64,000 bases of DNA from an uncultured Aquimarina sp. (GCA_947496555.1 CANMDH010000027.1:261-64260), one strand, 5' to 3'; positions 22,244 through 49,566 are shown, counted from the stretch's first letter. Numbers and translations are program-made. The notes: a model not told the origin generated them from the sequence alone.

Positions 22244-22280
22244 TCTAAGTAGGGTAATGTTTGGTGTAAAGGTACAAAAG

Positions 22281-22889
22281 TTAATTCAAGCGCTCTTTGA
22301 TAATTGTGCGCACGATATCAACCGCCACATTATTATAATGATTGTTGGGGATGATAAGATCGGCAAACTCTTTTGTAGGATCGATGAATTGCTGATGCAT
22401 CGGTTTTAAGGTGTTTTGATAACGATCCAAAACTTCATCCATATCCCTGCCGCGCTCTGCAATGTCTCTTTTTAATCGTCTTATTAACCGTTCGTCACTA
22501 TCGGTATGTACGTATATTTTGATATCAAACATATCTCTTATTTCTGGATTCGTAAGGATTAGGATTCCTTCTACAATCATAACCTTACTTGGTTTTGTTT
22601 TGATTGTTTCTTTGGTACGGTTATGTTCTACAAATGAGTATACAGGCTGATCTATCGTTTCTCCTTTCCTCAATGCAGTAAGATGTTTGCCAAGTAGTTC
22701 GAAATCTATCGATTGTGGGTGGTCAAAATTTATTTTTACTCTTTCTTCGTAAGTAAGGTGGCTGGTGTCTTTATAATATGCATCCTGCGAAATTACGCAT
22801 ACTTCATTCTCTGGTAACTCATTTACAATTTGATTCACAACAGTGGTTTTTCCACAACCTGTTCCTCCGGCTATACCGATAATTAGCAT
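22281..22889 (-). CDS. udk: uridine kinase
   Basis: 202 aa. P-loop GIAGGTGCGKTT and a typical Udk body (DAYYKD, FDHPQSIDFELL). Confidence 0.93.
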   Translation of the reverse strand: MLIIGIAGGTGCGKTTVVNQIVNELPENEVCVISQDAYYKDTSHLTYEERVKINFDHPQSIDFELLGKHLTALRKGETIDQPVYSFVEHNRTKETIKTKPSKVMIVEGILILTNPEIRDMFDIKIYVHTDSDERLIRRLKRDIAERGRDMDEVLDRYQNTLKPMHQQFIDPTKEFADLIIPNNHYNNVAVDIVRTIIKERLN

Positions 22890-22992
22890 TTCGATTTGTT
22901 TTTCGGCAAATTTAGAAATAGTTATTGAGTTTTTGAATAGGGGAGTGAATGAGTTTTTGGGTTTTTATTAAGAAATAAACCTTAGGTGGTTT

Positions 22993-24075
22993 CTAATTAG
23001 GGTAATAAATTACCCCCGAAGAGGAGTCTTTAATAGCACCCGTAACCGATTTCAGGCAATTGATTTCATTGATATCTCGTAATACCCCCATAAAGGCAAA
23101 AATCATCGCCTCTTTAAAATCTATAATTTCTTCTGATGGAATGATGATTTCGGCAAAATCTTTTACTTTATCCTGAAGGGTTTCAATCAAAAAATCATTT
23201 TTTGCACCGCCGCCAGTAACTAAAATCTTAGCATTCTTCTTTTGAGTATTCTTGATAACAGTGGCTATTTGTGTAGCAATGTGATGCACCGATGTATGTA
23301 ATAGGTTTTTTACTGAATCTTCAGAATTATCAATGATCGGAATTACTTTTTTTTCAAACCACTCATATCCCAAAGATTTTGGAAAGGGTAATTGATAGTA
23401 TGTTAAAGCATTTAGTTGATCTAATATATCATTATTTATGGCTCCGGTAGCAGCAATTTTACCTCCTTTATCATAGTCAAGATCGATTTTTTTACAAATA
23501 TGATTAAGAAGCATATTCACCGGAGAGATGTCATAGGCAATTCTTTTTTCTGTATTTTCAAAAGAAATATTGCTGATTCCCCCCAGGTTTAAGCAAAAAT
23601 CATATTCTCCAAATAACAATTGATCTCCAATAGGAACTAGGGGCGCGCCTTGGCCTCCCAAAGCCACATCGTTGGTTCTAAAGTCACAAATCACTTTTTG
23701 ACCACTGGCATTTGCAAGATGCTGTCCGGATCCTATCTGATAGGTAAGACCAATTTCGGGTTGATGAAAAACGGTATGCCCATGACTGGCTATAAAATCT
23801 ACTTCAATGTTGTTTTTATCTACAAAATCTTTCACTTTTCCTCCAAGCCAACTACCATATTCGTTATGGAATGCCAATAATTTTGAAGCCTCAATATGCA
23901 CCGTGTTTTTTAGTTTTTCTTTAAATTCGGGAGTGTAGTCAATGCTTTCGGTTTTTTCTATCGAAAAAGACCAGGTTTCATTTTTCTTTTCAAAATAACA
24001 ATAGGCAATATCCAAACCATCAAGAGAGGTTCCAGACATTAAACCGATAACTTTATATAGTTGCGTTTTCGACAT
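22993..24075 (-). CDS. anmK: anhydro-N-acetylmuramic acid kinase
   Basis: 360 aa. N-terminus GLMSGTSLDGLDIA, with GGQGAPLVP and VTGGGAKN motifs as in AnmK. It overlaps the upstream methyltransferase gene by 23 nt. Confidence 0.9.
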   Translation of the reverse strand: MSKTQLYKVIGLMSGTSLDGLDIAYCYFEKKNETWSFSIEKTESIDYTPEFKEKLKNTVHIEASKLLAFHNEYGSWLGGKVKDFVDKNNIEVDFIASHGHTVFHQPEIGLTYQIGSGQHLANASGQKVICDFRTNDVALGGQGAPLVPIGDQLLFGEYDFCLNLGGISNISFENTEKRIAYDISPVNMLLNHICKKIDLDYDKGGKIAATGAINNDILDQLNALTYYQLPFPKSLGYEWFEKKVIPIIDNSEDSVKNLLHTSVHHIATQIATVIKNTQKKNAKILVTGGGAKNDFLIETLQDKVKDFAEIIIPSEEIIDFKEAMIFAFMGVLRDINEINCLKSVTGAIKDSSSGVIYYPN

Positions 24076-24745
24076 AGTGCAAGGTAAAAATTATTGATAA
24101 CAACTCGTCCTGATCATTGGTAACTTCCGCAATATCCTCAATCGATAAATTACAATTGGTAAATACTTCAATCCAGTCTTCAAGAGTTCTGGCATACCAT
24201 CGATGAGGATTTTTAAAATTACCCGGAAGCCCTTTCCATGAATCTTTAATCCATTGACTTTGGTAGGCTACCTTTTGATATTTTAAAAAGTGTGGATGTA
24301 ACGTTTGGATTATTATTTTGCCATCTGGGGCAAGTATTCTTTTTAGGGCGTTCAACAAATTTTGAACTTCATCCTTTTGATATAAACTAAAGTTACAAAC
24401 TATGCCGTCATACGGAGACTTTGGAATTGGAACTCCTCTTATAATTTCTTCATAGGTTAAGGTATAAAAGTATTGTGGTCCTTTTTGCTGTGCATTTTTG
24501 ATGAGTGTATCAATCGCATCGATTCCCACAATTTCTGTAAATTGGTTGGATAATGAGCGGGTAAGCCAACCCTCACCACAACCAACATCAAGGATTTTTG
24601 TAAAAGCATGTTTTCTAATATGATTTACAATCGCCGGATTGGTGTACATTCTAGAAGGGATGATATTGTCGTCGATAACACGAATCCATTCCTTTGCATT
24701 AGTTGACCAAGATTCAAAAATTGATGTGTTTGTCATTTTTACCAA
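24053..24745 (-). CDS. class I SAM-dependent methyltransferase
   Basis: 230 aa. Motif I ILDVGCGEGWLT and post-I VGIDA. It is embedded in the muropeptide operon, 2 nt after the GH3 stop. The start could instead be M4. Confidence 0.8.
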   Translation of the reverse strand: MVKMTNTSIFESWSTNAKEWIRVIDDNIIPSRMYTNPAIVNHIRKHAFTKILDVGCGEGWLTRSLSNQFTEIVGIDAIDTLIKNAQQKGPQYFYTLTYEEIIRGVPIPKSPYDGIVCNFSLYQKDEVQNLLNALKRILAPDGKIIIQTLHPHFLKYQKVAYQSQWIKDSWKGLPGNFKNPHRWYARTLEDWIEVFTNCNLSIEDIAEVTNDQDELLSIIFTLHYVENATI

Positions 24746-24747
24746 TT

Positions 24748-26319
24748 TTAGGGTGTTACGGGAATATTTCCAGCGGTATTATGTTTACCCAAAAAATGCT
24801 GCCCTGCTACTTGTTGAAATTCTGTGAAGTCCTGATAGGCAAGAATAATATTTTCAATATGATCCGTATTAAAAACCCTTAGTACATATGGATTACCAAA
24901 CAAGTACAAAGTTACCCGGTTTAATTTACTTAGATTTTGGATGTATTCGATGGTTTTCTGATCAAGTCCGAAATTATGTATAGGTTTCACTGAAGGAGGG
25001 AATAGTGCGATAAGTATATTCTTTGCATTATGTTCTACTATATCTTCTTCAGAATATGAATACTTTTTGAAGTTTATATTATCTGCAATATGATCAAAGA
25101 AAGTGCAGCTTGGTTTTCCAATACAAATTGCTTCAAATGTTTCTGTTTTAAATTTCTCCAGTGTTTCAGATGCGCCTTTGATCATGGTAATGGTCTGTTG
25201 TGCAATTTTTTGATTTAAAACTGAATGTGTATCTGGTTTTGGAGGTAATATACTTGATTTTTGAACTGAAAATGCTTTTTGTTTCATTTTCCATATTCTA
25301 TTGAAACTATCTTCAATCTGTTGATCCGAAGCGTTTTTTTCAATCATGCGAATCCCTTCCTCTACATTTTCTGAAAAACATAAAATATCATTACCGGCAT
25401 CAAAGGCTTTCCATTCCAACAATCCTTTTTCTTGGTATAACTTAGATACACTGTGCATGTTCAGCGCATCAGAGATTACAACGCTCCCAAATCCTAATCT
25501 CTCTCTAAGTACACCTTTTATAATGTCTTTTGATAAAGTAGCAGAAATATGTTGTGCATTACTTAATTCGGGTACTACCAGATGCCCAATCATTATGCTA
25601 TCAATACCCGATTCGATGGCTTTTATAAATGGATATAACTCCTGGTCATGTATTTCGGCTTTGGATTTATTAATTACCGGAAGTCCAAGATGGGAATCTA
25701 CATTGGTATCTCCATGCCCTGGAAAATGCTTAAAACAGCCTAAAACTCCTGCTTCTTTTGTCCCTTTATAAAAAGATAATGCCTTTTCGGTAACTTTTTC
25801 TTTGTTTTCACCAAAAGAACGATACCCTATTACTGGATTATTCGGATTCATATTAATATCAGCCACAGGGGCCAAATTCATATGTATACCTATGTTGGCA
25901 AGATCGTTTCCTATTTGTTTTCCGGTCTGAAAAATAAGCTCATTTTGATTGTCTGGTAAGGCTCCTAAAGTAAGTGCATACGGATATTGGGGTGTGTTTT
26001 CTACGCGCATTGCCAAACCCCATTCGGCATCAATACTTATTAATAATGGAGTAGGGGCAATACTTTGATAATGATCTATTAATTCTTCAAGTCTTTGAAA
26101 ACTGTTTTCATTTCGTGTTATTTTTTTCTTCCCTTCAAAATTGGTGGCAGCACTTGCACGGCTGTGAAAAAAAGTGAGTCCGCCAATATTGAAATTTTTA
26201 ATAAGTGTTTCTAAACGTCGAATTTCTTCTTGAGAGTCATTTATAAAAGCTGCCGGAAAGAAAAACTGTCCGATTTTTTCTCTTTTAGAAAGGTTTTTTA
26301 AGTTGTCTACTGGCATCAT
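24748..26319 (-). CDS. glycoside hydrolase family 3, NagZ-like beta-N-acetylhexosaminidase with an extra C-terminal domain
   Basis: 523 aa with no signal peptide. KHFPGHGDTNVDSH is the NagZ-type GH3 motif, and IDAEWG, RSFG and SDALNM are present. Confidence 0.88.
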   Translation of the reverse strand: MMPVDNLKNLSKREKIGQFFFPAAFINDSQEEIRRLETLIKNFNIGGLTFFHSRASAATNFEGKKKITRNENSFQRLEELIDHYQSIAPTPLLISIDAEWGLAMRVENTPQYPYALTLGALPDNQNELIFQTGKQIGNDLANIGIHMNLAPVADINMNPNNPVIGYRSFGENKEKVTEKALSFYKGTKEAGVLGCFKHFPGHGDTNVDSHLGLPVINKSKAEIHDQELYPFIKAIESGIDSIMIGHLVVPELSNAQHISATLSKDIIKGVLRERLGFGSVVISDALNMHSVSKLYQEKGLLEWKAFDAGNDILCFSENVEEGIRMIEKNASDQQIEDSFNRIWKMKQKAFSVQKSSILPPKPDTHSVLNQKIAQQTITMIKGASETLEKFKTETFEAICIGKPSCTFFDHIADNINFKKYSYSEEDIVEHNAKNILIALFPPSVKPIHNFGLDQKTIEYIQNLSKLNRVTLYLFGNPYVLRVFNTDHIENIILAYQDFTEFQQVAGQHFLGKHNTAGNIPVTP

Positions 26320-26322
26320 CGT

Positions 26323-27594
26323 TTAGGCTTTATCTTTTTTTCCATAATCAGTAGGATATTTAATGAACCAGGTTAGTAGAATTCCGGGTATTGCTGAAAG
26401 GGCTACCCAAAAAAAGAAGCCTGTATATCCCAGGAATTCTTGTATGATCCCGCTTAGCATACCAGGCAACATCATTCCCAATGCCATAAAACCTGTTGCG
26501 ATGGCATAGTGAGAAGTTTTTGAAACACCTTCGGCTACATAAATCAAAAACATTAAATAGGCAGCAAATCCAAATCCATATCCAAATTGTTCTATAATCA
26601 CTACCGATGTAGCAAAAACTACCGAAGATGGTTGCCAAAATGCCAATAATGCATATAAAAGGTTGGGAAGGTTTAACGCTAGGATCATTGGGAGCATCCA
26701 CTTTTTTAATCCGTGCATCGAAATGACAATGCCTCCTAAAATTCCACCAATAGTTAGTGCAATAATACCAAATGTACCATAAATAGTCCCTACTTCTGCT
26801 GTGGATAATGCTAATCCACCGGTTTCTGTACTGTCTAATAAAAAAGGAGAGGCCATTTTTACCAGTTGCGATTCTCCCAAGCGATATACTAAGATAAAAG
26901 CCAACGAGATCCAGATGTATTTCTTTTGAAAGAAAGTTATAAATACATCGATAAAGCTAATTTTTTCTTTTTGGATCGTGTTTATATCACTTTCTACTTT
27001 TGGTGTAGTGAATAAATTAACCAGAGTAAGTACAATCATTAAGACGGCTATAATGATCATGGTAAACGACCATGCTTTTTGATTATCACCATAATAACTT
27101 TCAAGAAAGCCAGCTACCACAACAAGCAAGCCTTGTCCGGTGACCATGGCCAATCGATAAAATGTACTACGTACTCCTAAGAAAAAGGATTGTTTTTTTT
27201 CTGAAAGAGCAATAAGATAGTATCCATCTGATGCAATGTCGTTTGTCGCTGAGGCAAATGCTGCTATCCAAAAACAAGCAATACTTAGGATAAAGAAATT
27301 ATTGGTGGGTATCATTAGCCCAACACCCAAAAAAGCAATAGCTACAAGTAATTGCATTCCCAGAAACCACTTACGTTTGGTGCTTTTAAGATCTACTATG
27401 GGGCTCCATAACGGTTTTATTACCCAAGGTAGATATAACCAACTTGTATAAATGCCAATATCGGCATTACTAATTCCCAATTTTTTATACATAATAACGG
27501 AAAGAGATATAATAATCACATAAGGTAATCCTTCGGTAAAATATAAGGAGGGCACCCATGCCCATGGTCTTTTGTCTATCTGTTGTTTCGTCAT
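26323..27594 (-). CDS. ampG: AmpG family muropeptide MFS permease
   Basis: 423 aa, about 12 TM helices. The N-terminus WAWVPSLYFTEGLPYVII is typical of AmpG. It overlaps the GNAT stop by 4 nt (ATGA). Confidence 0.88.
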   Translation of the reverse strand: MTKQQIDKRPWAWVPSLYFTEGLPYVIIISLSVIMYKKLGISNADIGIYTSWLYLPWVIKPLWSPIVDLKSTKRKWFLGMQLLVAIAFLGVGLMIPTNNFFILSIACFWIAAFASATNDIASDGYYLIALSEKKQSFFLGVRSTFYRLAMVTGQGLLVVVAGFLESYYGDNQKAWSFTMIIIAVLMIVLTLVNLFTTPKVESDINTIQKEKISFIDVFITFFQKKYIWISLAFILVYRLGESQLVKMASPFLLDSTETGGLALSTAEVGTIYGTFGIIALTIGGILGGIVISMHGLKKWMLPMILALNLPNLLYALLAFWQPSSVVFATSVVIIEQFGYGFGFAAYLMFLIYVAEGVSKTSHYAIATGFMALGMMLPGMLSGIIQEFLGYTGFFFWVALSAIPGILLTWFIKYPTDYGKKDKA

Positions 27595-28085
27595 GAATTG
27601 TTTTTTAGCATATGTTGATAGATACTGATTTCTGATCCATCGATTACTGTCGCATTAACGGTCTTTTGATAATATTCAACGGGGCCTACACCTCCTATGA
27701 TGGCATATGCATATCCTAGTTGCTTTAACCCAAGTAGGGCTTTGATTAATAATACTTTCCCAATGCTTTTACCTCTTTCTCTTTCAACAATACCGGTTGG
27801 GCCAAAGAAATTTTTGGCTGTACATTCATAGCAGGAGAAACCTATTATTTCTTGTTCTCTCTGCGCTATGAAACAGCTTATCGGAATTCTGGAAAATGCG
27901 ACATCAACTTCATCTGCCCAATTACTGCTAAAATGGTCGCCAACCCATTGCGTGATTACGGATTTTTCTGGGGCAATAGGTCTTCTGAAGATCACCTGTT
28001 CTTTTTCCTTTAAAACCTTTTCCGTTTGGGTGATGTCCGGAAGTGAAACCAACCTTACTAGCATATCATTCATCGGCTTTGACAT
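27591..28085 (-). CDS. GNAT family N-acetyltransferase
   Basis: 164 aa. The acetyl-CoA-binding region RERGKSIGKVLLIKAL fits the Q/RxxGxG/A pattern. The start is uncertain: 28085 overlaps the GHL10 gene by 20 nt, and 28073 and 28064 are alternatives. Confidence 0.75.
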   Translation of the reverse strand: MSKPMNDMLVRLVSLPDITQTEKVLKEKEQVIFRRPIAPEKSVITQWVGDHFSSNWADEVDVAFSRIPISCFIAQREQEIIGFSCYECTAKNFFGPTGIVERERGKSIGKVLLIKALLGLKQLGYAYAIIGGVGPVEYYQKTVNATVIDGSEISIYQHMLKNNS

Positions 28086-29583
28086 TAGAGATTAGTATAT
28101 TTTTAAATTTATAAGGCTTGCTTTCCCTTCGATAAACATCCAAATAAGTAATGGTAATTGGTTTCTTATTTTTTGTGATGGATATCGGGATTGTTATTGC
28201 AATATGATTATTAATGATTTTGGGATGGAATATACTCATATTATTTTTTGAATGATAAACTATCACAGCTCGTAAGGTTGTAGTTGTATCGTTTTTGAAG
28301 AAAAATGTTACAGAATCTTTATAGACTTTTCTCGAGGACAACTCTGGCGTAATGTCGATTCTTTTTTCTTTGATGTGAGAAGGAGTTAGGGATGGCTGTT
28401 GATACGTGCTTTTTGATAATTGCTCTGTAATATCATTGTGTTTATTAAGTAATGATTTGGCACTAAAAAATACATTTCCAGTAATGTTATCGGCTTTTCT
28501 TGCCAGTTTTACCTGCTTTGACAATTGTTTTTTCTTATTCCAGGCTTTATCAGAGTTATTTCTCACTTTATAAGCTCCATTACCAATATAGATATTAGTG
28601 TTGTTATTGTTTTTATTCCACCAATATACCAGCTTTCGATGTGAAGCTTTTGGATGATTGAGGCTCCAGTAAAGTTGCGGAGCCAAATAATCGATCCACC
28701 CTTTCTGCATCCAGGTCAGTGGATCAGCATACAAATCATCATAGGTAGTTTGTCCAGCTTCGGTATCAGAACCTGCAGAATCTACTGACTTGTTACGCCA
28801 TACCCCAAACGGACTAATACCAAATTGTACCCAAGGTTTTTGAGCTTTTATATTTGTATGGATATCGCGAATTAAGGTATTTACATTTTCTCTTCGCCAA
28901 TCTTCTATAGATTGGTCAGACTTAGCATACTGCTGGTAAGACCCTTGGTCATCAAAAACTTCATCTTTGATCTTATATGGATAAAAATAATCATCAAAAT
29001 GAATAGCATCTACATCATAATTATTAACAACTTCATTGATCACAGAAACCAGATGTTGTTGAACTTCTGGTAATCCTGGATTGTAATAATATTTCTTTCC
29101 ATATTTGATCATCCATGCGGGATGTTGATGATAGTCATGTTTTTGATCGAGAATGCTGGTATCCAAATCAAAAGTAGCGCGATAGGGGTTAAGCCATGCA
29201 TGAAATTCGAATCCTCGTTGATGTGATTCAGTAATCATCCAGGCCAATGGATCGTAATAGGTGCGAGGAGGGTTACCTTCTTTTCCAGTTAAAAAACGAG
29301 ACCAAGGTGCTAATTTTGAAGGGTATAAAGCATCACCAGCCGTACGAATCTGAACAATAACAGCGTTGAAATGCAATTTTTTATAAAATTCTAAGATCTC
29401 AATAAAATCCTCTTGTTGCTTTTTTACAGTATCGCTTCCGCTTTTTGGCCAATCGATATTAACTACAGAAGCGATCCATACTCCTCTAAATTCTCTCTTA
29501 TAAGAAGATTTGTTTTTGATCAAACTTCCGCAAGAACAAAATAATAATACCAAGAAAACAAAGTGTATTTTATAGCTGCTCAT
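28066..29583 (-). CDS. glycosyl hydrolase-like family 10 (GHL10/YngK-type) lipoprotein
   Basis: 505 aa. Lipobox VLLFCSCG. FRGVWIASVVNIDWP and the following TIM-barrel-like region are typical of GHL10 (formerly DUF187). There is an extra C-terminal domain of about 100 aa. Confidence 0.8.
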   Translation of the reverse strand: MSSYKIHFVFLVLLFCSCGSLIKNKSSYKREFRGVWIASVVNIDWPKSGSDTVKKQQEDFIEILEFYKKLHFNAVIVQIRTAGDALYPSKLAPWSRFLTGKEGNPPRTYYDPLAWMITESHQRGFEFHAWLNPYRATFDLDTSILDQKHDYHQHPAWMIKYGKKYYYNPGLPEVQQHLVSVINEVVNNYDVDAIHFDDYFYPYKIKDEVFDDQGSYQQYAKSDQSIEDWRRENVNTLIRDIHTNIKAQKPWVQFGISPFGVWRNKSVDSAGSDTEAGQTTYDDLYADPLTWMQKGWIDYLAPQLYWSLNHPKASHRKLVYWWNKNNNNTNIYIGNGAYKVRNNSDKAWNKKKQLSKQVKLARKADNITGNVFFSAKSLLNKHNDITEQLSKSTYQQPSLTPSHIKEKRIDITPELSSRKVYKDSVTFFFKNDTTTTLRAVIVYHSKNNMSIFHPKIINNHIAITIPISITKNKKPITITYLDVYRRESKPYKFKNILISNVKADE

Positions 29584-29599
29584 ATATGACTTGAAAAGA

Positions 29600-29627
29600 C
29601 TTACTCAATATTTTTACTATGAGTAAG
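29600..29627 (-). terminator. hairpin between susD-like and GHL10 genes (partial terminator or processing site)
   Basis: Perfect 8-bp stem CTTACTCA (29600-29607) / TGAGTAAG (29620-29627) with a 12-nt loop. A- and T-rich runs flank it. Confidence 0.4.
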
Positions 29628-29658
29628 CCTTTTTGGATTATTTGCTGGAATTATACAT

Positions 29659-30975
29659 TTATATTGCTGGATCATCCGGAGTATTAGAGTTATTATCTCT
29701 TTCTGTATCTGGATAGGGATAGTAATTACGGTTTCTCTCTGGATTTGGATCATTTGGCCCTGGTCTACCAAACCTTCTACTATCTTCTAACGACATTCCG
29801 GACATGAAGAGTTCAATTCTTCTGTTTCTATAAATCTCTTCTAAAATATTTTGCTGTTCGTTAAGACCTGAATAGGCTGATAGATTGGCACCTAGATCAT
29901 AGATGTCTTCTGATGCCGTTTTGGTTAGTACTTCATTTAAGGCATCTATTGCTTGTGGGAGTTGATTAAGTCTGGCATATGCTTCCGCCTTAATTAGAAT
30001 TACTTCACCTGGTAAATAAACTGGTATCTCATCCAGGTTATCTTCAAAGAACCCTACTGCAAAATATGCATCATCTCCGGTAGAAGGATCTTGTGCCAGT
30101 GTTATATAAAAATCTATTCTTTCATCGTTATTATTTGGTAGTAAGTCGTCTGGTAGCCCAAATCTAGTATCTTTTGCTTCTACGACATTGTTAGTACTAT
30201 ATACATCTGCAATCGGATTTGGTATTGCCGAATCATATGCCCAAGTAGAAGTAGTATTAAAATCAATGTTATCTGCCGCCGTAATTGCACTATTATACTC
30301 TTGGTTCATTAGATAATACCTTGCTAATAGTGCTTGTATAGAATTAGCTAAATCCACCGAGTTGAAAATATTAGAAGTTACGGTTGTTGATAATCCATTT
30401 TGAATGATATTTTCTGCCATTTCCAAATCTTCTATTGAGGCTGTAAGCACTTCGGTTCTGGTATTAAATGCTGCATTTCGTTCAATAGATAATGGGATTT
30501 GTTCGAAGAATTGGATTAATGTACCATGAGCCAAAGCTCTGTAATAGTATCCGTAGGCTTTTAGGGTATTAGCGACTTGGGTATCTGTAGCGGCACCATC
30601 TGCAGCGTTTATCACTGTAGTAGCCTCTTTTCTTACGAGCATCAATTGTCCCCATAAATTACGTAAGATACCATTGTTTATAGTAAGTCCGGTACCCCCA
30701 TTAGTTAATTGAGCTTCGGCTTCGTTACCAGGGTTGATTAACCTAAGTTCTCCGGTAGTTAGCCCCGAAGCAGTTACTGTTGTATATTTTGCTCCGGCAC
30801 GATCGGTACTATATCGTTTTTGGATTCCATTGATAAGGGAAGTAAGATTGTCTACACTACTTTCAACCTCGGGATCAGATATATTAATAGGATCTATAAA
30901 TTCTTTATCGCAGGATGAAAATATAAACACGATTAATAGCATTGAATATATATTAAATAATTTCATAACATTCAT
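29659..30975 (-). CDS. RagB/SusD family nutrient-uptake outer membrane lipoprotein
   Basis: 438 aa. Lipobox FIFSSCD and SusD-like helices (LIKAEAYARLNQLPQAIDALNEV). It starts 3 nt after the SusC stop, the canonical susC-susD pairing. Confidence 0.88.
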   Translation of the reverse strand: MNVMKLFNIYSMLLIVFIFSSCDKEFIDPINISDPEVESSVDNLTSLINGIQKRYSTDRAGAKYTTVTASGLTTGELRLINPGNEAEAQLTNGGTGLTINNGILRNLWGQLMLVRKEATTVINAADGAATDTQVANTLKAYGYYYRALAHGTLIQFFEQIPLSIERNAAFNTRTEVLTASIEDLEMAENIIQNGLSTTVTSNIFNSVDLANSIQALLARYYLMNQEYNSAITAADNIDFNTTSTWAYDSAIPNPIADVYSTNNVVEAKDTRFGLPDDLLPNNNDERIDFYITLAQDPSTGDDAYFAVGFFEDNLDEIPVYLPGEVILIKAEAYARLNQLPQAIDALNEVLTKTASEDIYDLGANLSAYSGLNEQQNILEEIYRNRRIELFMSGMSLEDSRRFGRPGPNDPNPERNRNYYPYPDTERDNNSNTPDDPAI

Positions 30976-30978
30976 TTT

Positions 30979-33900
30979 TTAAAGGTTAGCACTTACAGAA
31001 AAAATAAAAGTCCTTGGAATAGGTACACTACCAAAGTTTACAGCTCTTAATAGGTTGGATTGCCCTCCTGCATTGGTTTCGGGATCATAACTAAAGAAAT
31101 TGTCAAAAGAAATCAGATTTCTTCCTTTAAAAGCAATAGTCATATCTTTAATACCTTTAATTAATTCAGGAAAGGAATAACTGATAGAGACTTCACGTAG
31201 TTTTACAAAAGATCCATCTTCCATTCTAAATTCTTGTATGGGATATATGGATGAGATATATCCTCTTGGTAATTCTCCGCTTAATTCTTGCTCTGCTAGT
31301 CGACCGACACCAACTCCTTGTCGGGTTCTTTTATCTGCGTCAAAAACATCAAAACCTTGTACTGCTTCCCATAACATAGAAAAAGAAAAGTTTTTATAGC
31401 TAAAATCTGTTCCTACCCCTAGAATAAAATCAGGATTAGGATCGCCAATCACTCGTCTTAAGTTGCTTCCCGTGGGTTGTCCATTGGCATCTCGTAGTAC
31501 TTCACCTGTGACTGGATCTCCTTTCTCAGGTTGAGGTAATCCATCTTCTGTCAAAAGCAAGCTTCCGTTAGTATTGCGAGCAAAGTAGGTGCCATAAAAT
31601 ACTCCTAGCGGTTCTCCTTCTCTTACTTGAGGTGGGGCACCAGATACTGTAGCAATTGATATGGGACCACCTATAGTTTTGGTCACTTCATTTTGATTCC
31701 GGCTAAAGTTGGCATTCAGGTTCCATTGCATTTTATCATTTTTAATCGGAGTAATCCTTAGATAGGCTTCTAAACCATTATTTTTCATGGTGCCAACATT
31801 TTCAAATCTGGTAGACCCCCCTTCAGACGGAGCTATCGTCCTCTGAACAATGAGGTCAGAAATTTCCTGGTTGTAATATGTGAAAAGAACTGAAATTCGG
31901 TTATTGAGAAAACTGAGGTCTGTTCCTATTTCAAATTCTTTAAGGCGTTCTACCTCCAGGCCTTCATTACCCAGAGAGCTGGATTGATTTAATGGGTCTG
32001 ATCCCAAAAATTCACTGGGCTGATATCTGCCAAATCGCGAATAAGGACCAACCGCAGTCAAATTACCTGCCTCACCAAATGAAGATCGAATACGAGCGGA
32101 GTTGATAACGTTACCTATTCCAGAATTTTTCCAGAAGTCCTCATTAGAAAGCACATAAGACCCTGATATTTTAGGATAGAAATTGGTCCTCTTATCCGGA
32201 TCAAAGTTGGTAGCGCCATCTATACGTCCGGCTAATGTGAGGAAGTATCTATCGCTAAAGGATAAGGTCTCTTGTAAAAAACCACCAAAAATTTCTATTT
32301 CGTCATCACTTAATTGTGTCTGAAGTGGTATCGTTGGAACTCCGCTTTCATCGAGACCTCTACCTTGGGTTCCTGTGTATTCTAATTTACTGGATTGAAA
32401 ATTATAACCAATAATGGTTTGAGAATTAATCGTTTCAGACAAATCAAAATCTAAAGTAGCATTGATATCGTAATTCCAGTTAAAAATATCTGCTTCTGCA
32501 TTTCCAAGGTATCCATTGTCAAAATAAGCTGAATTTACTGGCGAATATGGATATACAGGAATAGAAATATTTCCTTCTTGTTTATAAGTATCAACACCCA
32601 AAATCTGGTCTATAGTAAGGAATTTAAGTGGTTTTAAAGATACTTTCAGGCTAGGGACAAATCGATTTACTTCTTGAGTAATATCAAATTCTTCTATAAT
32701 GGTCAATGGATTGACTCGAGTAGGTTCTACACTTTGCAGGTTTCCATTTTCATCTCTTCGAGTGGCATCGTAAATATTATTGGTAATATTTACAGCATTT
32801 ATAGGACTCCAAAACACGTTTCCATCAGGTTTCTCGTCGGATTGACTGTTTACATAATAAAAGCCCAGGTCATAGGACAACCAATCTGTAACCTTGTGAT
32901 TGAGTGATAATCTTGTGGATAATCTTTCGTACTTTGTATTTTTAATGATCCCTTCGTTTGAGGTATATCCTATAGAACCTGCATAACTTAATTTTTCATT
33001 CCCATCTCGATAGGAAATATAATGATCACTACCTATCCCAGTTCTGAATATTAGGTCCTGATAGTCATATCGTTGTACTTCTACCTTGTTTGTCAATAAA
33101 TTTGCAAAGGGAGTCGTGTTTCCATCTGCATCTCTACCAAATATAGGCCATAATCGAACGTCTTCTCCTCCAAATTGTTCGCCACGAAGGTTGGTGTCTA
33201 CTTTTTTTCTAAGGTCATTGATATTTGTTGATGTTTTGATAAATATTTCTGGGCCATCACCAAAATTACGTCCACGTTTAGTAGTAATGATCACTACACC
33301 ATTAGATGCTCTTGATCCATAGATAGCTGCAGCAGCAGATCCGTTAAGAATGTTGATATCTGCAATATCATTGGGATTGAAATCTACTAAACGATTTTGT
33401 CCTGGGGATGCATCACCGGCACTTACATTGATATTAGTCACATTTGTAGTAAGGTTACTTGCAATTACTCCATCTATAATGTATAAGGTGTCAGATGATC
33501 CACTAATGGTACTAGGTCCTCGCAGGCGGATGGAAAAACCACCTGCCGGATCTCCTGAGTTTTGTGTAATTTGCGCTCCTGGAATCTTGCCTTGTAAGGC
33601 CGAAGTAACATCTACAGGGTTTGATTTTACTAAATCACCTGCTTTGATAGAAGTAACTGCATTTCCTAGTTTTTTCCTTTCCTGAACCACAGTAGAACCA
33701 GTAACAATGACTTCATCCAGACTTAATAAATCTTCTGTAATCTGAAAATCTTGTACAATTTCAGTTTCCGTGCCTAAAGTAATAGTAATTTTCTGTGTAG
33801 AATATCCTAAAGAACTTACTATCAATTGATAATCTCCTGATGCAGTTGAAGCAGTGAAAGTATATTTTCCGTCAAAGTCGGATACACCTCCAAAGGAAGA

Positions 33901-34080
33901 ACCTTCTATATATACTGATACTCCAGGGATCGGTACGCTGGTTGCTTGATCTGTAACGGTTCCTGAAATAGTATAAAAATTGTTCTGCGCATTTACTACA
34001 GAACAGAATGTCATAAATAGTAATAGACTTACTATTTTTTTTACGGGTATTCGCCGTAATAATTTGCCCCTATTTTTCAT
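30979..34080 (-). CDS. SusC/RagA family TonB-linked outer membrane protein
   Basis: 1033 aa. Signal peptide, CarboxypepD_reg domain (YTISGTVTDQATSVPIPGVSVYIEG), plug (ALQGKIPGAQITQNSGDPAGGFSIRLRG, IIDGV), then a large beta-barrel. Confidence 0.93.
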   Translation of the reverse strand: MKNRGKLLRRIPVKKIVSLLLFMTFCSVVNAQNNFYTISGTVTDQATSVPIPGVSVYIEGSSFGGVSDFDGKYTFTASTASGDYQLIVSSLGYSTQKITITLGTETEIVQDFQITEDLLSLDEVIVTGSTVVQERKKLGNAVTSIKAGDLVKSNPVDVTSALQGKIPGAQITQNSGDPAGGFSIRLRGPSTISGSSDTLYIIDGVIASNLTTNVTNINVSAGDASPGQNRLVDFNPNDIADINILNGSAAAAIYGSRASNGVVIITTKRGRNFGDGPEIFIKTSTNINDLRKKVDTNLRGEQFGGEDVRLWPIFGRDADGNTTPFANLLTNKVEVQRYDYQDLIFRTGIGSDHYISYRDGNEKLSYAGSIGYTSNEGIIKNTKYERLSTRLSLNHKVTDWLSYDLGFYYVNSQSDEKPDGNVFWSPINAVNITNNIYDATRRDENGNLQSVEPTRVNPLTIIEEFDITQEVNRFVPSLKVSLKPLKFLTIDQILGVDTYKQEGNISIPVYPYSPVNSAYFDNGYLGNAEADIFNWNYDINATLDFDLSETINSQTIIGYNFQSSKLEYTGTQGRGLDESGVPTIPLQTQLSDDEIEIFGGFLQETLSFSDRYFLTLAGRIDGATNFDPDKRTNFYPKISGSYVLSNEDFWKNSGIGNVINSARIRSSFGEAGNLTAVGPYSRFGRYQPSEFLGSDPLNQSSSLGNEGLEVERLKEFEIGTDLSFLNNRISVLFTYYNQEISDLIVQRTIAPSEGGSTRFENVGTMKNNGLEAYLRITPIKNDKMQWNLNANFSRNQNEVTKTIGGPISIATVSGAPPQVREGEPLGVFYGTYFARNTNGSLLLTEDGLPQPEKGDPVTGEVLRDANGQPTGSNLRRVIGDPNPDFILGVGTDFSYKNFSFSMLWEAVQGFDVFDADKRTRQGVGVGRLAEQELSGELPRGYISSIYPIQEFRMEDGSFVKLREVSISYSFPELIKGIKDMTIAFKGRNLISFDNFFSYDPETNAGGQSNLLRAVNFGSVPIPRTFIFSVSANL

Positions 34081-34129
34081 ATAATTGTGTTTAGAATTAG
34101 CTCACATTTTTGGAACCCGAAACGAGTTC

Positions 34130-36076
34130 TTAGAATTTGTATCGCACAAATCCTTCTATGGCTTCATATTCAGGAAGCCCAAGTTTGTTATACTTTATGG
34201 CAGTAGATTTGTTTCGTTCTTCGGCACGCTGCCAAAATTCGCGGGCGTCATTGCCAGGAAACATAGCACTATCTTTTTGAGACTGGTGCTTAAAAATCGC
34301 ACTGCGTTTGCGGGCCATGTCTTTGGGACCAATGGGTACTGCCATCTCCATATCAGAGATATCCCATTCTTGCCAGGCGCCACGATATAACCATACATAC
34401 GTATTATTGATCCATGGAACATTTTCTTTAACAAGTCGATCAATAGCTTCGTAGATAATTTTGAGGCAAACTCTATGGGTGCCATGAGGATCTGAAAGAT
34501 CTCCCGCAGCAAAAATTTGATGAGGTTTTGTTTTTTGTAATAAGTCGTAGGTAATTTGTACATCTTCTTCACCTGGAGGTTTCTTTTTAATCGCTCCGGT
34601 TTCATAAAACGGAAGGTTTAAAAAATGCGCGTTTTCTTCTAATACATCACAATACCTGCAGGCAGATAATGCTTCCCCTTTTCTAATCAATCCTTTAAAA
34701 TTTTGAATTTCGGGAGTATCGATGTCTCCCGGGGATTTATTTTCAATAAAATGTCGTACTTGTTTTAAAAGTATAGAAAGTTCTTCACTGGCTTGTTGAT
34801 TTTTAACCACATCTCTGGTAAAATCCAGAAAGCGTATTACTTCATCATCAAATACTGCTATGTTACCCGAAGTTTGATATGCTACATGTACATCATGTCC
34901 CTGATCTACCAGTCGAAGTAACGTGCCTCCCATAGAGATCACATCATCATCGGGATGCGGACTAAATATCAAAGAAGTTTTTGGATACGGTTCTGCACGT
35001 TCTGGTCTATTGGAGTCATCAACTCTTGGCTTCCCTCCAGGCCAGCCTGTTATGGTACGTTGTAGTTGATTAAATACTCTTAGGTTAATTTCCTCGGCAG
35101 AACCTATCTCGGCAATTAGACTACCCATACCAAATTCATTGTAATCTTCATTGGTGAGTTTTAATAATGCCTTATCCAACTTTTCTGAAAGCCAGATGGC
35201 TGCTCTTTTAATTAAGGTATTATTCCAATGGCAATCAGAGACCAACCAAGGAGTTTTTACTCGGGTAAGTTCTGAAGCTGCAGCCTCATCAATAATAAAG
35301 GTGCAATTGTTATGTTTTTGAAGGAAAGTAGCTGGTATGAAGTCGGTAACTTCTCCTTCTATGGATTGATTGATAATATTGGCTTTTCCTTCTCCCCAAG
35401 CTAATAAAAATATCTTTTTGGCGGCCATTATAGTTCCTACACCCATAGTAATAGCTCTTGCGGGTACGCTTTCTTCTCCAAAAAAGTCACTGGCAGCATC
35501 AAGTCGGGTAACTTTATCCAAACGAATTAAACGAGTTTTGCTGTTTATAGAGGATCCAGGTTCATTAAATCCTACATGTCCGGTTCTACCGATACCTAGT
35601 ATTTGAATATCGATTCCTCCATAATGTTGAATTAGGTTTTCATAGGCTTCGCAAGCCTGTTTTATTTGATCAATAGGTAAAGTGCCATCCGGGATATGAA
35701 TATTTTTCTTCTCAATATCTATATGATCAAAGAGATGCTCATTCATAAATCGAACATAACTTTGCAATGATTTTGGTTGGATAGGGTAGTATTCGTCTAG
35801 ATTAAATGTGATTACATTTTTGAAACTTAGCCCTTCGTTTTTATGAAGTGCTACCAAATATTCATATACTTTGGTTGGACTAGAACCTGTAGCCAATCCT
35901 AAAACTGTATGCTTACCAAGTTCTGAATTTTCTTTAATAAGTTTTGCTATTTGGTGAGCAACATAACGCGATGCTTTTTCAGAACTTTCATAAATCGATG
36001 CTTCGATTTTTTCGTATTTTTTTGATTCTGGATCAAGAAGATACTCCAGTTTAGGGTCCTTAGAAAGCATTTCCAT
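34130..36076 (-). CDS. nagB: glucosamine-6-phosphate deaminase fused to a PIG-L/LmbE-type deacetylase domain (long Bacteroidota NagB)
   Basis: NagB motifs LGLATGSSP and ILGIGRTGHVGFNEPGS in the N-terminal half, and PIG-L motif SPHPDDDVISMGGTL in the C-terminal half. The track start at 36082 is a TTG. The ATG at 36076 (MEMLSKDPK) is preferred. Confidence 0.9.
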   Translation of the reverse strand: MEMLSKDPKLEYLLDPESKKYEKIEASIYESSEKASRYVAHQIAKLIKENSELGKHTVLGLATGSSPTKVYEYLVALHKNEGLSFKNVITFNLDEYYPIQPKSLQSYVRFMNEHLFDHIDIEKKNIHIPDGTLPIDQIKQACEAYENLIQHYGGIDIQILGIGRTGHVGFNEPGSSINSKTRLIRLDKVTRLDAASDFFGEESVPARAITMGVGTIMAAKKIFLLAWGEGKANIINQSIEGEVTDFIPATFLQKHNNCTFIIDEAAASELTRVKTPWLVSDCHWNNTLIKRAAIWLSEKLDKALLKLTNEDYNEFGMGSLIAEIGSAEEINLRVFNQLQRTITGWPGGKPRVDDSNRPERAEPYPKTSLIFSPHPDDDVISMGGTLLRLVDQGHDVHVAYQTSGNIAVFDDEVIRFLDFTRDVVKNQQASEELSILLKQVRHFIENKSPGDIDTPEIQNFKGLIRKGEALSACRYCDVLEENAHFLNLPFYETGAIKKKPPGEEDVQITYDLLQKTKPHQIFAAGDLSDPHGTHRVCLKIIYEAIDRLVKENVPWINNTYVWLYRGAWQEWDISDMEMAVPIGPKDMARKRSAIFKHQSQKDSAMFPGNDAREFWQRAEERNKSTAIKYNKLGLPEYEAIEGFVRYKF

Positions 36077-36146
36077 AAGCAATGTATTTTTGTGTGAATA
36101 CTATGTAACGAATAAGTCAGTACTAAATTAATGTATTAAATTCTAA

Positions 36147-36221
36147 TTTTTGCAATATTTTGCTGTTTTTATTAACAAAAGCGAGTTAATTACTATATTT
36201 GCTATTAAAATATTGCAAAAA
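36147..36221. promoter_or_regulatory. pair of perfect 15-bp inverted repeats in the nagB/deoR divergent region (candidate DeoR operator)
   Basis: TTTTTGCAATATTTT (36147-36161) and its exact reverse complement AAAATATTGCAAAAA (36207-36221) lie 45 nt apart. A TATATTTG -7 box at 36194-36201 would place the second repeat about at the deoR transcription start. Confidence 0.5.
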
Positions 36222-36240
36222 ACTGCAATTTATAAAATGT

Positions 36241-36990
36241 ATGCTTAAGGAAGAACGTCAACAAGTAATTATCAACGAGGTAAGAATTCATAGTAGGGTT
36301 TCATTATCTGAGTTATCTGATAAACTGGATGTATCTATAGATACTGTTAGAAGAGATGTTAAAGAATTAGATAAACTAGGAACTCTGAAAAAAGTGCACG
36401 GAGGGGCTGTATCTCTCGGTTTTGCACTTCATAATTATAAGGAGCAAAATATTTACCTGCATGAAAAAAAATCTAATATTGCAGAAAAGGCAATTTCATT
36501 GATTCCGAATCGAAGTGTAATTCTGATTAGTGGGGGTACAACCAATCTTGAGATGGCTAGATTGTTACCTTCTAAATTAAAAATAACAGTTTTTACCCCA
36601 AGCTTACCTATAGCAATGCAGCTTATCTTGCATCCCAATGCTGAAGTTATTTTTATCGGAGGAAAATTATCGAAAGAGGCAAAAATAACAACAGGAGGAA
36701 AGGCAATTTATGACTTATCGCAGATTACAGTTGATATAGGTTTTATAGGTACTGGGTATATAGATTCACAAAATGGACTTACCGAATTTGATTGGGATGT
36801 AGTACAAATGAAAAAAGCAATGATAGCGGCTTCAAAAAAAGTGATAGTACCAACAATATCAGAAAAATTAAATACATATCAGTGTTATAAGACTTGTGAT
36901 TTGAATACTGTTGATACTCTAATAACAGAGTTAGATCCCGATGCTCATCAATTAGATCCGTTCAGAAGTCATAATATCAAGATTTTGTAA
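36241..36990 (+). CDS. DeoR/GlpR family transcriptional regulator
   Basis: N-terminal HTH (LSELSDKLDVSIDTVRRDVKELD) and a DeoR C-terminal sugar-phosphate sensor domain. The track start at 36199 is a TTG and would bury the repeat. The ATG at 36241 (MLKEERQQVII) is typical. Confidence 0.88.
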   Translation: MLKEERQQVIINEVRIHSRVSLSELSDKLDVSIDTVRRDVKELDKLGTLKKVHGGAVSLGFALHNYKEQNIYLHEKKSNIAEKAISLIPNRSVILISGGTTNLEMARLLPSKLKITVFTPSLPIAMQLILHPNAEVIFIGGKLSKEAKITTGGKAIYDLSQITVDIGFIGTGYIDSQNGLTEFDWDVVQMKKAMIAASKKVIVPTISEKLNTYQCYKTCDLNTVDTLITELDPDAHQLDPFRSHNIKIL

Positions 36991-37036
36991 GTTACTTCTT
37001 CTAAAGAGTGGATAATAGTCTTAAAATATACGTTAG

Positions 37037-37051
37037 CAAAAGGCTTCCTTT
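37037..37051. terminator. small hairpin between convergent genes (AAAAGG-CTT-CCTTTT)
   Basis: 6-bp stem with a 3-nt loop, between the deoR stop (36990) and the stop of the 37059 gene. Weak. Confidence 0.2.
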
Positions 37052-37058
37052 TTAGGGA

Positions 37059-37841
37059 TTATATTTTAGTAATATACTGAAGATCGAGTATCTCTGTATT
37101 GATTTCGGGCAAGGATTTTTTATAATAAAAATCAATAATTTGATTCTCTAGGTAAGGTCTAATAGCTTCGATATTATTTTCATTATAAAGTCTGTAAACG
37201 TATACTCCTTCTGATTTTTTGAATGCTTTCATAAGCTCATCAGGGTTCTTAACAATATCGATATTTTTATATTTTTCAAATTTTTTCTTCATCCATCGAT
37301 GGCAGGACAATTTGGTCTGGCTATCAATAAGATCCTTTTTAAGTTGATCAAATTTCTCGATATTAGAAAAATCTTCATTTAATGCTCGATCCAGGGAGAC
37401 TTTGGCTTTTGTAAATTGTCGCTCAAATTTAAAATCGACAACGTACATATCCTTTTTTACTTTCTTTACTACTTCATAAAGAGCATTTTCATAAATATTG
37501 GCAAAATCTTCATAGCTATATAAGGCATTCAGGAATATAATAGCGTTTTTCTTGTAATATTTTGGAATAGGTTGTTTTTTGGCTTTTATGAAAAGGGTAT
37601 GAAGTTCTTGTTCAATCTCATCGGGAATATCTACAAATTTTGAGTCGTTCTTTAGTGCTCTTAATTGTGCGGTAATCTGAAGCCGTGTTCCTTTATATAG
37701 TTCGGACTTATGTTTAAACCTATATTTATTTGGAGAGATTTCTTCGTTTTGGGCAGTAATTTGGATTGAGGTTAAAAGCATTATAAAAAATGCCAAAAAC
37801 CTTGTAAATAATAGTTTGGTCGGTATTTGTTTGCCCCTCAT
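37059..37841 (-). CDS. secreted hypothetical protein
   Basis: 260 aa with a signal peptide (FLAFFIMLLTSIQITAQ). Lys/Glu-rich and helical-looking, with no recognised motif. It lies 48 nt downstream of the cytochrome c gene. Confidence 0.6.
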   Translation of the reverse strand: MRGKQIPTKLLFTRFLAFFIMLLTSIQITAQNEEISPNKYRFKHKSELYKGTRLQITAQLRALKNDSKFVDIPDEIEQELHTLFIKAKKQPIPKYYKKNAIIFLNALYSYEDFANIYENALYEVVKKVKKDMYVVDFKFERQFTKAKVSLDRALNEDFSNIEKFDQLKKDLIDSQTKLSCHRWMKKKFEKYKNIDIVKNPDELMKAFKKSEGVYVYRLYNENNIEAIRPYLENQIIDFYYKKSLPEINTEILDLQYITKI

Positions 37842-37889
37842 TTGTGTGTTAACGATAACATAGTATTAATAACGTATAATCACCGACGA

Positions 37890-45398: not shown

Positions 45399-45407
45399 TT
45401 GTTGATT

Positions 45408-47336: not shown

Positions 47337-47349
47337 CAAAAAGTAGAAA

Positions 47350-49558: not shown

Positions 49559-49566
49559 TATATTTG
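49559..49566 (+). promoter_or_regulatory. candidate -7 box (TATATTTG) for the acylase gene
   Basis: Exact TAnnTTTG match 18 nt before the ATG at 49585. A second match, TAGCTTTG, lies at 49522-49529. Confidence 0.3.

Follow-up and report, generated by a model that had tools for sequence, protein, structure and literature searches.

We analysed a 64,000-nucleotide stretch of DNA from an uncultured Aquimarina sp. (GCA_947496555.1, CANMDH010000027.1:261-64260; hereafter the window, with positions counted from its first letter), a low G+C sequence (about 35%) in which nine genes on the minus strand and one divergent DeoR-family gene combine a SusC/SusD-type outer-membrane pair (SusCD) with proteins of the AmpG, NagZ and AnmK families (Table 1). 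The evidence base for this locus is sequence, predicted structure and gene neighbourhood. All ten open reading frames (ORFs) named in a preliminary description of the sequence were recovered with the positions and orientations proposed there, and nine of the ten were identified by Pfam and NCBIfam searches; the remaining one, encoding a 164-aa GNAT protein, has no Pfam or NCBIfam match of its own. With mechanically assigned starts, where negative values are overlaps, the junctions measure -20 nt (GHL10 to GNAT), -4 nt (GNAT to ampG), +3 nt (ampG to GH3), +2 nt (GH3 to methyltransferase) and -23 nt (methyltransferase to anmK), with +49 nt between nagB and susC, +3 nt between susC and susD and +75 nt between susD and GHL10. 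Correction of the start codons by homologue alignments and by the gene calls of near-identical contigs moved the GNAT start to ATG 28073, which leaves an 8-nt overlap with GHL10, and the methyltransferase start to ATG 24736, which leaves an 11-nt gap; the corrected starts of susD, nagB and deoR are ATG 30966, ATG 36076 and ATG 36241. The earlier statement that the junctions from GHL10 to anmK run from a 23-nt overlap to a 3-nt gap agrees with the mechanical ORFs, and the start corrections alter some of the junctions slightly. The spacing of susC and susD is 3-12 nt, and the adjacency of a SusC (TIGR04056, 592 bits, with the TIGR04057 signature) and a SusD (PF07980) is that of a polysaccharide utilization locus (PUL).

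Table 1. Genes and candidate regulatory sites of the locus, in window coordinates (L001 is one of the related loci discussed in the text)
Feature	Position	Strand	Basis
DeoR-family repressor	36241..36990	+	PF08220 + PF00455; mechanical ORF start TTG 36199; start fixed by the 249-aa L001 homologue
Second candidate DeoR operator site, GCAAAAAACTGCA	36215..36227	+	Comparative motif; inverted relative to the first
Candidate DeoR operator half-site, GCAAAATATTGCA	36151..36163	-	Comparative motif
NagB (glucosamine-6-phosphate deaminase) fused to a PIG-L/LmbE-type N-deacetylase	34130..36076	-	NF002557, TIGR00502, PF01182 + PF02585
SusC-like TonB-dependent outer-membrane transporter (type A allele)	30979..34080	-	TIGR04056, TIGR04057 signature
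SusD-like surface lipoprotein	29659..30966	-	PF07980; lipobox Cys followed by DKEFID
GHL10 lipoprotein, Cwp19-like probable lytic transglycosylase, predicted periplasm-facing	28066..29583	-	PF02638, 5oq2
Small cytoplasmic GNAT, probably a glucosamine/glucosaminide N-acetyltransferase	27591..28073	-	Homologues, AlphaFold model, Foldseek
AmpG-family inner-membrane muropeptide permease	26323..27594	-	TIGR00901 (below cutoff), PDB AmpG matches
Cytoplasmic NagZ-type GH3 beta-N-acetylglucosaminidase with an extra C-terminal region of ~170 aa	24748..26319	-	PF00933, signature KHFPGHGDTNVDSH
Class I S-adenosylmethionine-dependent methyltransferase	24053..24736	-	Generic methyltransferase Pfam matches
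AnmK	22993..24075	-	NF007144, PF03702, PDB 3cqy

The enzymes of the locus resemble those that generate and consume anhydromuropeptides. The GHL10 lipoprotein matches PF02638 with 258 bits (cutoff 27.9) and is 47% identical over 369 residues to the catalytic domain of Clostridioides difficile Cwp19 (5oq2, E 3.6e-107); in a HMMER alignment, all 13 residues proposed for the Cwp19 active site (W36, Q77, W127, R132, D195, D196, Y197, S250, Q295, Y297, G328, F367 and S368; PMC5765458) are identical in the window protein. Mass spectrometry has shown that Cwp19 releases 1,6-anhydromuropeptides, which makes it a lytic transglycosylase (PMC6016235), and the GHL10 protein is, judged by its sequence, probably a lytic transglycosylase of the same type. 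The product of such an enzyme is the very anhydro-disaccharide consumed by AmpG, NagZ and AnmK, and the preliminary assignment of these three proteins was upheld. For the AmpG-family protein, the only PDB matches at E<=0.001 are AmpG structures (8zgz, E 3.6e-23, residues 17-418, full length). The GH3 protein scores 223 bits against PF00933, its top PDB matches are all GH3 N-acetylglucosaminidases, and residues 197-210 read KHFPGHGDTNVDSH, including the Asp-His dyad, in agreement with the NagZ signature, KH(F/I)PG(H/L)GxxxxD(S/T)H. AnmK passes its equivalog cutoff (NF007144, 527 bits against 436) and scores 224 bits against PF03702; the possibility raised earlier that the gene might score better as a levoglucosan kinase is not borne out, the best PDB match being AnmK (3cqy, E 7.7e-37, 130 bits) and levoglucosan kinase following by a modest margin (E 3e-28, 102 bits). 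Finally, the fused NagB-PIG-L protein scores 1042 bits against NF002557 and 264 bits against the nagB model TIGR00502 (cutoff 237), it carries both PF01182 and PF02585, and its NagB part matches the PDB NagB 2bkv with E 7.5e-54. The PIG-L domain is possibly a stand-in for NagA.

The 164-aa protein is a GNAT because of both its homologues, 1024 in number with many named GNAT and a mean column identity of 73%, and its predicted fold: the AlphaFold model has a pLDDT of 87, the family motif R-G-K-x-I-G is conserved and the top Foldseek matches are GNATs. The closest of these are GlmA (5KGH/5KF1), a glucosamine/glucosaminide N-acetyltransferase of Clostridium acetobutylicum, and 4ZM6, a glucosamine N-acetyltransferase region fused to a fungal (Rhizomucor) GH3 N-acetylglucosaminidase, which rank first among 959 structural matches (E 2e-7 and 5e-7, TM-scores of 0.68-0.71, 16% identity); 4ZM6 is also among the sequence matches of the GH3 protein of the locus. 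Both GlmA and 4ZM6 acetylate glucosamine and work alongside N-acetylglucosaminidase chemistry. These structural matches, and the match that the GNAT shares with its GH3 neighbour, suggest that the GNAT re-acetylates glucosamine residues, and on the strength of the modelled fold it is probably a glucosamine/glucosaminide N-acetyltransferase. GlmA, however, has two domains in 328 aa whereas the window GNAT is one domain of 160 aa, onto which the catalytic residues cannot be mapped, and when the GNAT profile was compared with PDB sequences the match to GlmA was confined to its CoA-binding motif (E 0.045), which is not significant alone. A 'Rosetta stone' fusion of GNAT to GH3 was sought by running the GNAT profile against 1.84 billion protein representatives: almost all members of the family stand alone at ~160 aa, and the few longer ones that were checked carry unrelated Peripla_BP_2, sulfatase or Cys_rich_CWC domains and not GH3. 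The methyltransferase family is narrow, with 207 homologues; its model (pLDDT 93) is most similar to an uncharacterised Pseudomonas putida protein (3E8S, TM-score 0.88), and the other matches in the structure search are generic class I methyltransferases from which no function can be assigned. The preliminary description had put forward the GNAT, the methyltransferase and the PIG-L domain as candidates for non-canonical steps. For the GNAT a GlmA-type precedent exists; the methyltransferase stays a candidate with no functional match, and the PIG-L domain possibly replaces NagA.

To place the locus in a wider context we used the GNAT as anchor in one scan of 185,579 species genomes, which gave 224 relatives, and searched the 80 top-ranking loci with the window proteins in tblastn. 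These 80 are the best matches to a single anchor and fall mostly into two genera groups, and the counts that follow are phylogenetically non-independent. The full GHL10-GNAT-ampG-GH3 core is found in 72 of the 80, the other eight lying mostly on short contigs or on contigs that end within the array, and it occurs in two architectures that are never mixed. The Cyclobacteriaceae type (40 loci, Algoriphagus and relatives) runs Amidase_2, GHL10, GNAT, ampG, GH3, where present with a divergent deoR in front, and has no SusCD; its Amidase_2 protein is a lipoprotein resembling E. coli AmiD. The Flavobacteriaceae type (36 loci) ends in anmK and has susC immediately upstream of GHL10 in 32 of 36, with a recognisable susD in 29, the methyltransferase in 29 and nagB-PIG-L in 30. 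The gene order of the window recurs in Aquimarina, Flagellimonas/Allomuricauda, Ascidiimonas and Fulvivirga, the last (Cytophagia) having the same array without GHL10, and because the order recurs across genera the arrangement is not due to chance. The presence of the core where SusCD is missing indicates that the core cassette predates the link to SusCD, and the core alone looks like an ordinary recycling module.

Acidic residues after the lipid-bearing Cys act as a lipoprotein export signal in Bacteroidota (PMC6222051). All SusD orthologues are acidic straight after this Cys (C-DKEFID or C-ETDFEN), whereas no GHL10 orthologue is (C-GSLIKNK in the window; C-AVSKAPK or C-KSQKP... elsewhere), which is why GHL10 is predicted to face the periplasm. 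Of the two placements offered for this lipoprotein in the preliminary description, surface or periplasmic, the second is thus preferred and the first is not. No signal peptide is found in GH3, the GNAT, the methyltransferase or AnmK. A textbook PUL includes an endo-acting enzyme at the surface, and the sole endo-type enzyme here, GHL10, is predicted to be periplasmic; other features of a PUL are present, with GHL10 and GH3 co-oriented on one strand and a divergent deoR whose conserved operator motif lies in the intergenic DNA beside it. The imported ligand is probably already soluble, as muropeptides or short glycan strands from other bacteria would be. We also observed that GHL10 of the Cyclobacteriaceae (L022, L028, L029, L033 and most Algoriphagus loci; ~8360-8520) has a linker of 30-50 residues rich in Pro, Thr and Ser after the lipid Cys. 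An enzyme anchored in the outer membrane could extend to the sacculus by means of such a linker, which is nearly absent from the Flavobacteriaceae orthologues.

The DeoR protein has HTH_DeoR and DeoRC domains. In 59 related loci deoR is transcribed away from the array, whichever gene leads it (Amidase_2, nagB, susC or GHL10). Repeated candidate operator sites lie in its own divergent promoter region. The comparative motif GCAA[AT]A-N3-4-[TG]GCA is present in 71 copies in 13.3 kb of deoR-adjacent intergenic DNA, a density of 5.3 per kb; the remainder of the loci has 0.034 per kb, which makes the enrichment about 150-fold. The motif stands upstream of susC in all eight loci in which susC comes first. 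The window contains exactly two copies, in inverted orientation between deoR and nagB, and none before susC or GHL10, a distribution that fits one DeoR-controlled promoter ahead of nagB. A simple 10-mer operator, TTGCAATATT, was rejected as it is not enriched in the window, and the comparative motif was used instead. A terminator and promoter scan of positions 22200-37900, made with a sigma-70 model unsuited to Bacteroidota, gave no more sites than shuffled sequence and none in the susD-GHL10 and nagB-susC gaps; it neither splits nor proves an operon, and co-transcription from nagB to anmK is what we infer from the layout. Three Flagellimonas-group loci (L021, L027 and L080; ~200-3900) have two deoR paralogues, one divergent from nagB-PIG-L and the other from susC; in these, nagB is a separate unit and susC to anmK form the regulated block, and in L021 GCAA-type repeats resembling the operator motif occur in both intergenic regions.

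The nature of the regulator bears on whether the locus might be a wall-damage sensing circuit, with AmpG, NagZ and AnmK controlling how much anhydromuropeptide signal is available, much as they do when beta-lactamase is induced through AmpR/AmpC in Proteobacteria. Although these three proteins are reported to set the inducer pool in AmpC systems (PMC9880065 and related papers), the regulator here is a DeoR protein of the sugar-phosphate type, no ampR, ampC or ampD was found in the window, and the operon includes a catabolic NagB and an outer-membrane importer; the window offers nothing in favour of such a circuit, which we consider highly improbable.

Several lines of evidence on the SusCD pair come from its other genomic contexts. 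A 435-aa protein 100% identical to the window SusD is on record, and SusD gave only weak generic SusD matches among PDB sequences. Using SusD as a query, we read the neighbourhoods of homologues of 52-57% identity. In a minimal locus of Capnocytophaga (L089), susC, susD and anmK follow a deoR and a MurQ gene that point the other way. Cellulophaga baltica (L087) has the same two reversed genes before nagB-PIG-L, susC, susD, GHL10, ampG, GH3 and anmK. Zobellia laminariae (L086) has a reversed deoR followed by susC, susD, an SSF transporter and a MurQ-like gene, and in Galbibacter orientalis (L090), where both nagB-PIG-L and deoR are reversed, susC and susD are followed by NamZ, SSF and MurQ-like genes. 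A Gillisia locus (L085) combines a NagP-like major facilitator superfamily (MFS) protein, GH20, MurQ, susC, susD, the methyltransferase, GHL10, SSF, a dipeptide epimerase and NlpC/P60; its SusCD is type-B-like (see below; SusC 39% and SusD 38% identical to the window), its MurQ passes the equivalog cutoff (TIGR00274, 324 against 302) and its epimerase belongs to the L-Ala-D/L-Glu epimerase family. The routes downstream are thus either anhydro (GHL10, AmpG, NagZ, AnmK) or hydrolytic (NamZ, SSF, MurQ). Because SusCD is retained whichever of these routes follows it, its ligand most likely contains N-acetylmuramic acid (MurNAc). A broader proposition, which we regard as possible but rather doubtful, is that this subfamily is the missing outer-membrane peptidoglycan importer of Bacteroidota and the fixed entry point of a modular 'murein utilisome' that continues by an anhydro route or by a hydrolytic one (NamZ, an SSF/MurT-like transporter, MurQ).

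The SusCD slot itself is variable. Comparison of window positions 29659-34080 with L001, L003, L008, L013, L023, L026 and L027 revealed two deeply diverged alleles, A and B, that alternate in one slot across genera. The window SusC is 95% identical to that of L001. Aquimarina celericrescens, by contrast, is 85-96% identical to the window in all other genes of the locus and only 46% in SusC and 36% in SusD, whereas five Flagellimonas loci are 76-78% identical in SusC and 67-68% in SusD with just 50-71% in the core genes. L005, L018 and L045 have yet another SusC type, a distant one (28%). This pattern of sequence identities would be explained by replacement of the cassette, or by an ancestral tandem pair of which different lineages lost different members, and alleles A and B, which alternate in both Aquimarina and Flagellimonas, may recognise different peptidoglycan chemotypes. 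In the GNAT-anchored set the methyltransferase accompanies SusCD of type A or B (29 of 29 loci with such a pair, 0 of 7 without), and it directly follows susD in Gillisia and in Maribacter thermophilus, where a reversed deoR, susC, susD and the methyltransferase stand alone before an LldD-like flavin mononucleotide dehydrogenase (L083-L085). It was rejected as a constant companion of the SusCD subfamily, as Cellulophaga, Zobellia, Capnocytophaga and Galbibacter have SusCD without it. The methyltransferase may perform a so far undescribed modification of muropeptides.

Taken together, the gene content, synteny and operator motif lead us to favour, as the probable interpretation of this sequence, a DeoR-repressed, PUL-like operon for the uptake and catabolism of MurNAc-containing peptidoglycan fragments from other bacteria. 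The preliminary description had argued from the presence of SusCD to scavenging of exogenous fragments, and this gains support from the synteny, the recurring association of SusCD with MurQ, NamZ or AnmK, and the operator, with uptake as such being what these would imply.

Other observations weigh against the scavenging interpretation. MurQ, NagA and AmpD had been noted as missing from the locus, and neither these nor NagK could be found anywhere in the 64-kb window. The AmpG-family protein scores 188 bits against TIGR00901, below the cutoff of 350 (a functional AmpG of Tannerella forsythia is likewise just 24% identical to E. coli AmpG), and the GH3 protein, with its extra C-terminus, scores 157 bits against the NagZ equivalog NF003740, below the cutoff of 207. 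The likeness of the GNAT to GlmA is structural only (16% identity, TM-score 0.68), one GHL10 protein is reportedly active on starch (PMC9967864), and a more distant Calditrichia relative of the SusCD pair (47%) has no peptidoglycan genes nearby. Finally, the core is found without SusCD not only in the 40 Cyclobacteriaceae loci but also in four Flagellimonas-group loci, so that SusCD is an accessory and the core could mainly serve turnover of the cell's own wall.

This last observation underlies the alternative of housekeeping recycling, in which the substrate of GHL10 would be the sacculus of the cell itself, as it is for the Mlt lytic transglycosylases anchored in the outer membrane of E. coli, AmpG, NagZ and AnmK would salvage the product, and SusCD would import unrelated sugars or only those of N-acetylglucosamine (GlcNAc) type. 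It is consistent with the predicted periplasmic orientation of all GHL10 orthologues, the long Algoriphagus linker with its possible reach to the sacculus, and the Algoriphagus partner gene, since an AmiD-like lipoprotein amidase is a classical recycling enzyme. However, the slot upstream of GHL10 is occupied by susC in nearly all loci of the AnmK type, and the SusCD subfamily is tied to MurQ, NamZ or AnmK in five further architectures, down to the minimal susC-susD-anmK locus with MurQ and DeoR. The operator motif, moreover, lies directly upstream of susC when susC comes first, and control by a repressor, like the presence of a fused catabolic NagB, is more in keeping with a nutrient operon than with recycling that is always on. 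We judge recycling of this kind to be an unlikely explanation of the locus as a whole, and own-wall recycling and exogenous use are not mutually exclusive.

A different ligand is assumed if the locus is taken to serve chitin, chitosan or another glycan of GlcNAc or glucosamine, in which case SusCD would import chito-oligosaccharides, the MFS permease, GH3, GlmA-like GNAT and NagB-PIG-L would process them, and AnmK would be a passenger. The GNAT, NagB-PIG-L and GH3 could be accommodated: GlmA-type acetyltransferases also act on chitosan oligomers (the GNAT match being structural), PIG-L/LmbE enzymes include a diacetylchitobiose deacetylase, NagZ-type GH3 enzymes can cleave chitobiose, and NagB is common to GlcNAc catabolism. 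The locus contains no chitinase (GH18, GH19 or GH20), however, its GHL10 protein is close to a peptidoglycan lytic transglycosylase, and AnmK, which passes its equivalog cutoff, is conserved across 36 loci as the last gene of the operon. Sister loci, too, include the murein-specific Amidase_2, MurQ, NamZ, an enzyme of the L-Ala-D/L-Glu epimerase family and NlpC/P60, and we find a chitin-type substrate very unlikely.

Under the preferred reading, as a locus for foreign peptidoglycan, the operon is built by the addition of a dedicated SusCD importer to an anhydromuropeptide module of Bacteroidota type. The surface SusD and TonB-dependent SusC would bind muropeptides or pieces of peptidoglycan glycan and carry them across the outer membrane to the periplasm, where the periplasm-facing GHL10 would cut the MurNAc-beta-1,4-GlcNAc bond to leave 1,6-anhydroMurNAc ends and so yield GlcNAc-anhydroMurNAc with or without peptide. 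AmpG, as a member of its family, would import this disaccharide; in the cytoplasm the GNAT, by analogy with GlmA, would re-acetylate the glucosamine of de-N-acetylated fragments so that NagZ can act, the NagZ-type GH3 would free GlcNAc and AnmK would convert anhydroMurNAc to MurNAc-6-phosphate. More tentatively, the small GNAT may repair wall fragments that are de-N-acetylated and lysozyme-resistant and so enable their digestion. NagB-PIG-L would funnel the amino sugar to fructose-6-phosphate, possibly with PIG-L acting for NagA. MurQ, required after AnmK, would have to be encoded elsewhere in the genome; its gene is part of the corresponding locus in Cellulophaga, Capnocytophaga, Zobellia, Galbibacter and Gillisia. 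DeoR would probably sense a sugar phosphate of the pathway.

A characterised system close to this one is that of T. forsythia, also a member of the Bacteroidota, which grows on exogenous peptidoglycan by means of AmpG (PMC7670621). Its salvage pathway (AmpG, NamZ1/2, MurT-MurK-MurQ; PMC5388701, PMC7670621, bioRxiv 10.1101/2021.12.02.470905) processes exogenous peptidoglycan in the periplasm and takes up disaccharides through an AmpG homologue, and its MurQ and NamZ have counterparts in sister loci of the window SusCD subfamily. Unlike the window locus, the T. forsythia operon has no SusCD or other outer-membrane importer, and none is named for the system in these three reports; AnmK is missing from T. 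forsythia altogether, and the operon lacks GHL10, the GNAT and the methyltransferase, is regulated by the hybrid two-component GppX and not by DeoR, and serves wall synthesis in an auxotroph, whereas NagB implies catabolism here. The nearest earlier account is of a PUL rich in murein genes in Urechidicola, a symbiont of Idas mussels and another member of the Flavobacteriaceae, which shares susCD, deoR, ampG, nagB, GH3 and a 'GH10' gene (probably GHL10) with the window (ISME Commun 2023, PMC10199937, Fig. 5). It differs in having two susCD pairs together with murQ, ampD, ycjG, dacA, GH18 and GH171, and AnmK, the GNAT and the methyltransferase go unmentioned in the passages of that paper that deal with the PUL; its legend notes that most genes of the PUL concern murein, and those passages describe the PUL without analysing it and leave the substrate open as mucus or environmental. 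Recycling in E. coli and Pseudomonas (Mlt/Slt, AmpG, NagZ, AmpD, AnmK and MurQ or MupP-AmgK-MurU) shares the logic of lytic transglycosylase, AmpG, NagZ and AnmK in series, but its genes are scattered, constitutive and directed at the cell's own wall, its transglycosylases belong to GH23, GH102, GH103 and GH104 and not to GHL10, and a GNAT, a methyltransferase, a DeoR regulator and an importer in the outer membrane are all missing from it. That a SusC/SusD-type pair encoded in a catabolic operon can take up a small acidic amino sugar in place of a polysaccharide has a precedent in NanOU of T. forsythia and Bacteroides, as outlined in PMC3969230; its ligand is sialic acid, and the likeness to the window SusCD is one of description only.

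In a survey of 13,537 PULs, the passage on peptidoglycan reports that the families targeting it are strongly (statistically) under-represented and present in some PULs, and GHL10 is not among the families listed in that passage (PMC6499787). A full-text literature search returned no functional description of a peptidoglycan SusCD or PUL system and no named outer-membrane importer. The locus is thus a PUL-type system whose substrate class had been suspected earlier, not established, and which has two components with no assigned role. The literature search also bears on one published annotation. The orthologous GH3 of Maribacter forsetii, P177_RS07335, has been read as a periplasmic laminarin beta-glucosidase in a proteomic study, and it was not significantly induced by laminarin (PMC11345257). 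Its gene adjoins an AnmK gene and a 'GH10' gene (probably GHL10). The NagZ signature, the lack of a signal peptide and this gene context suggest that the laminarin assignment is wrong.

Outside the locus, one flank consists of udk and methylmalonyl-CoA mutase genes and the other of genes for a 260-aa unknown protein, a cytochrome c, a sorbosone dehydrogenase-type protein and a TonB receptor. At 58607-62977 on the minus strand, 21 kb from the locus, genes for a Peptidase_S58 (DmpA-type D-aminopeptidase family), an Amidohydro_3 protein, a class IV (D-amino-acid-type) aminotransferase and a 2,4-diaminopentanoate-dehydrogenase-like protein may form a D-amino-acid or D-peptide catabolic set able to handle peptidoglycan stem peptides. 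A gene of the penicillin-amidase family (Ntn hydrolase; 49564-51762, plus strand), unrelated to the locus, is preceded at 42120-49326 by genes for a TPR/MORN-repeat protein and two DUF3857/transglutaminase-like proteins. An Rfam scan of positions 1-64000 found no RNA family at its gathering score.

In the sea, as in host-associated biofilms, peptidoglycan makes up a large pool of bacterial necromass that is rich in nitrogen. If the SusCD pair described here does import MurNAc-containing fragments, it would provide a genomic marker for bacteria that feed on the walls of others and would explain how Flavobacteriia, including oral Capnocytophaga, acquire such fragments. It would also give GHL10 lytic transglycosylases a catabolic role, and it would supply candidates for two steps of muropeptide metabolism, in the form of a GlmA-like acetyltransferase and an orphan methyltransferase.

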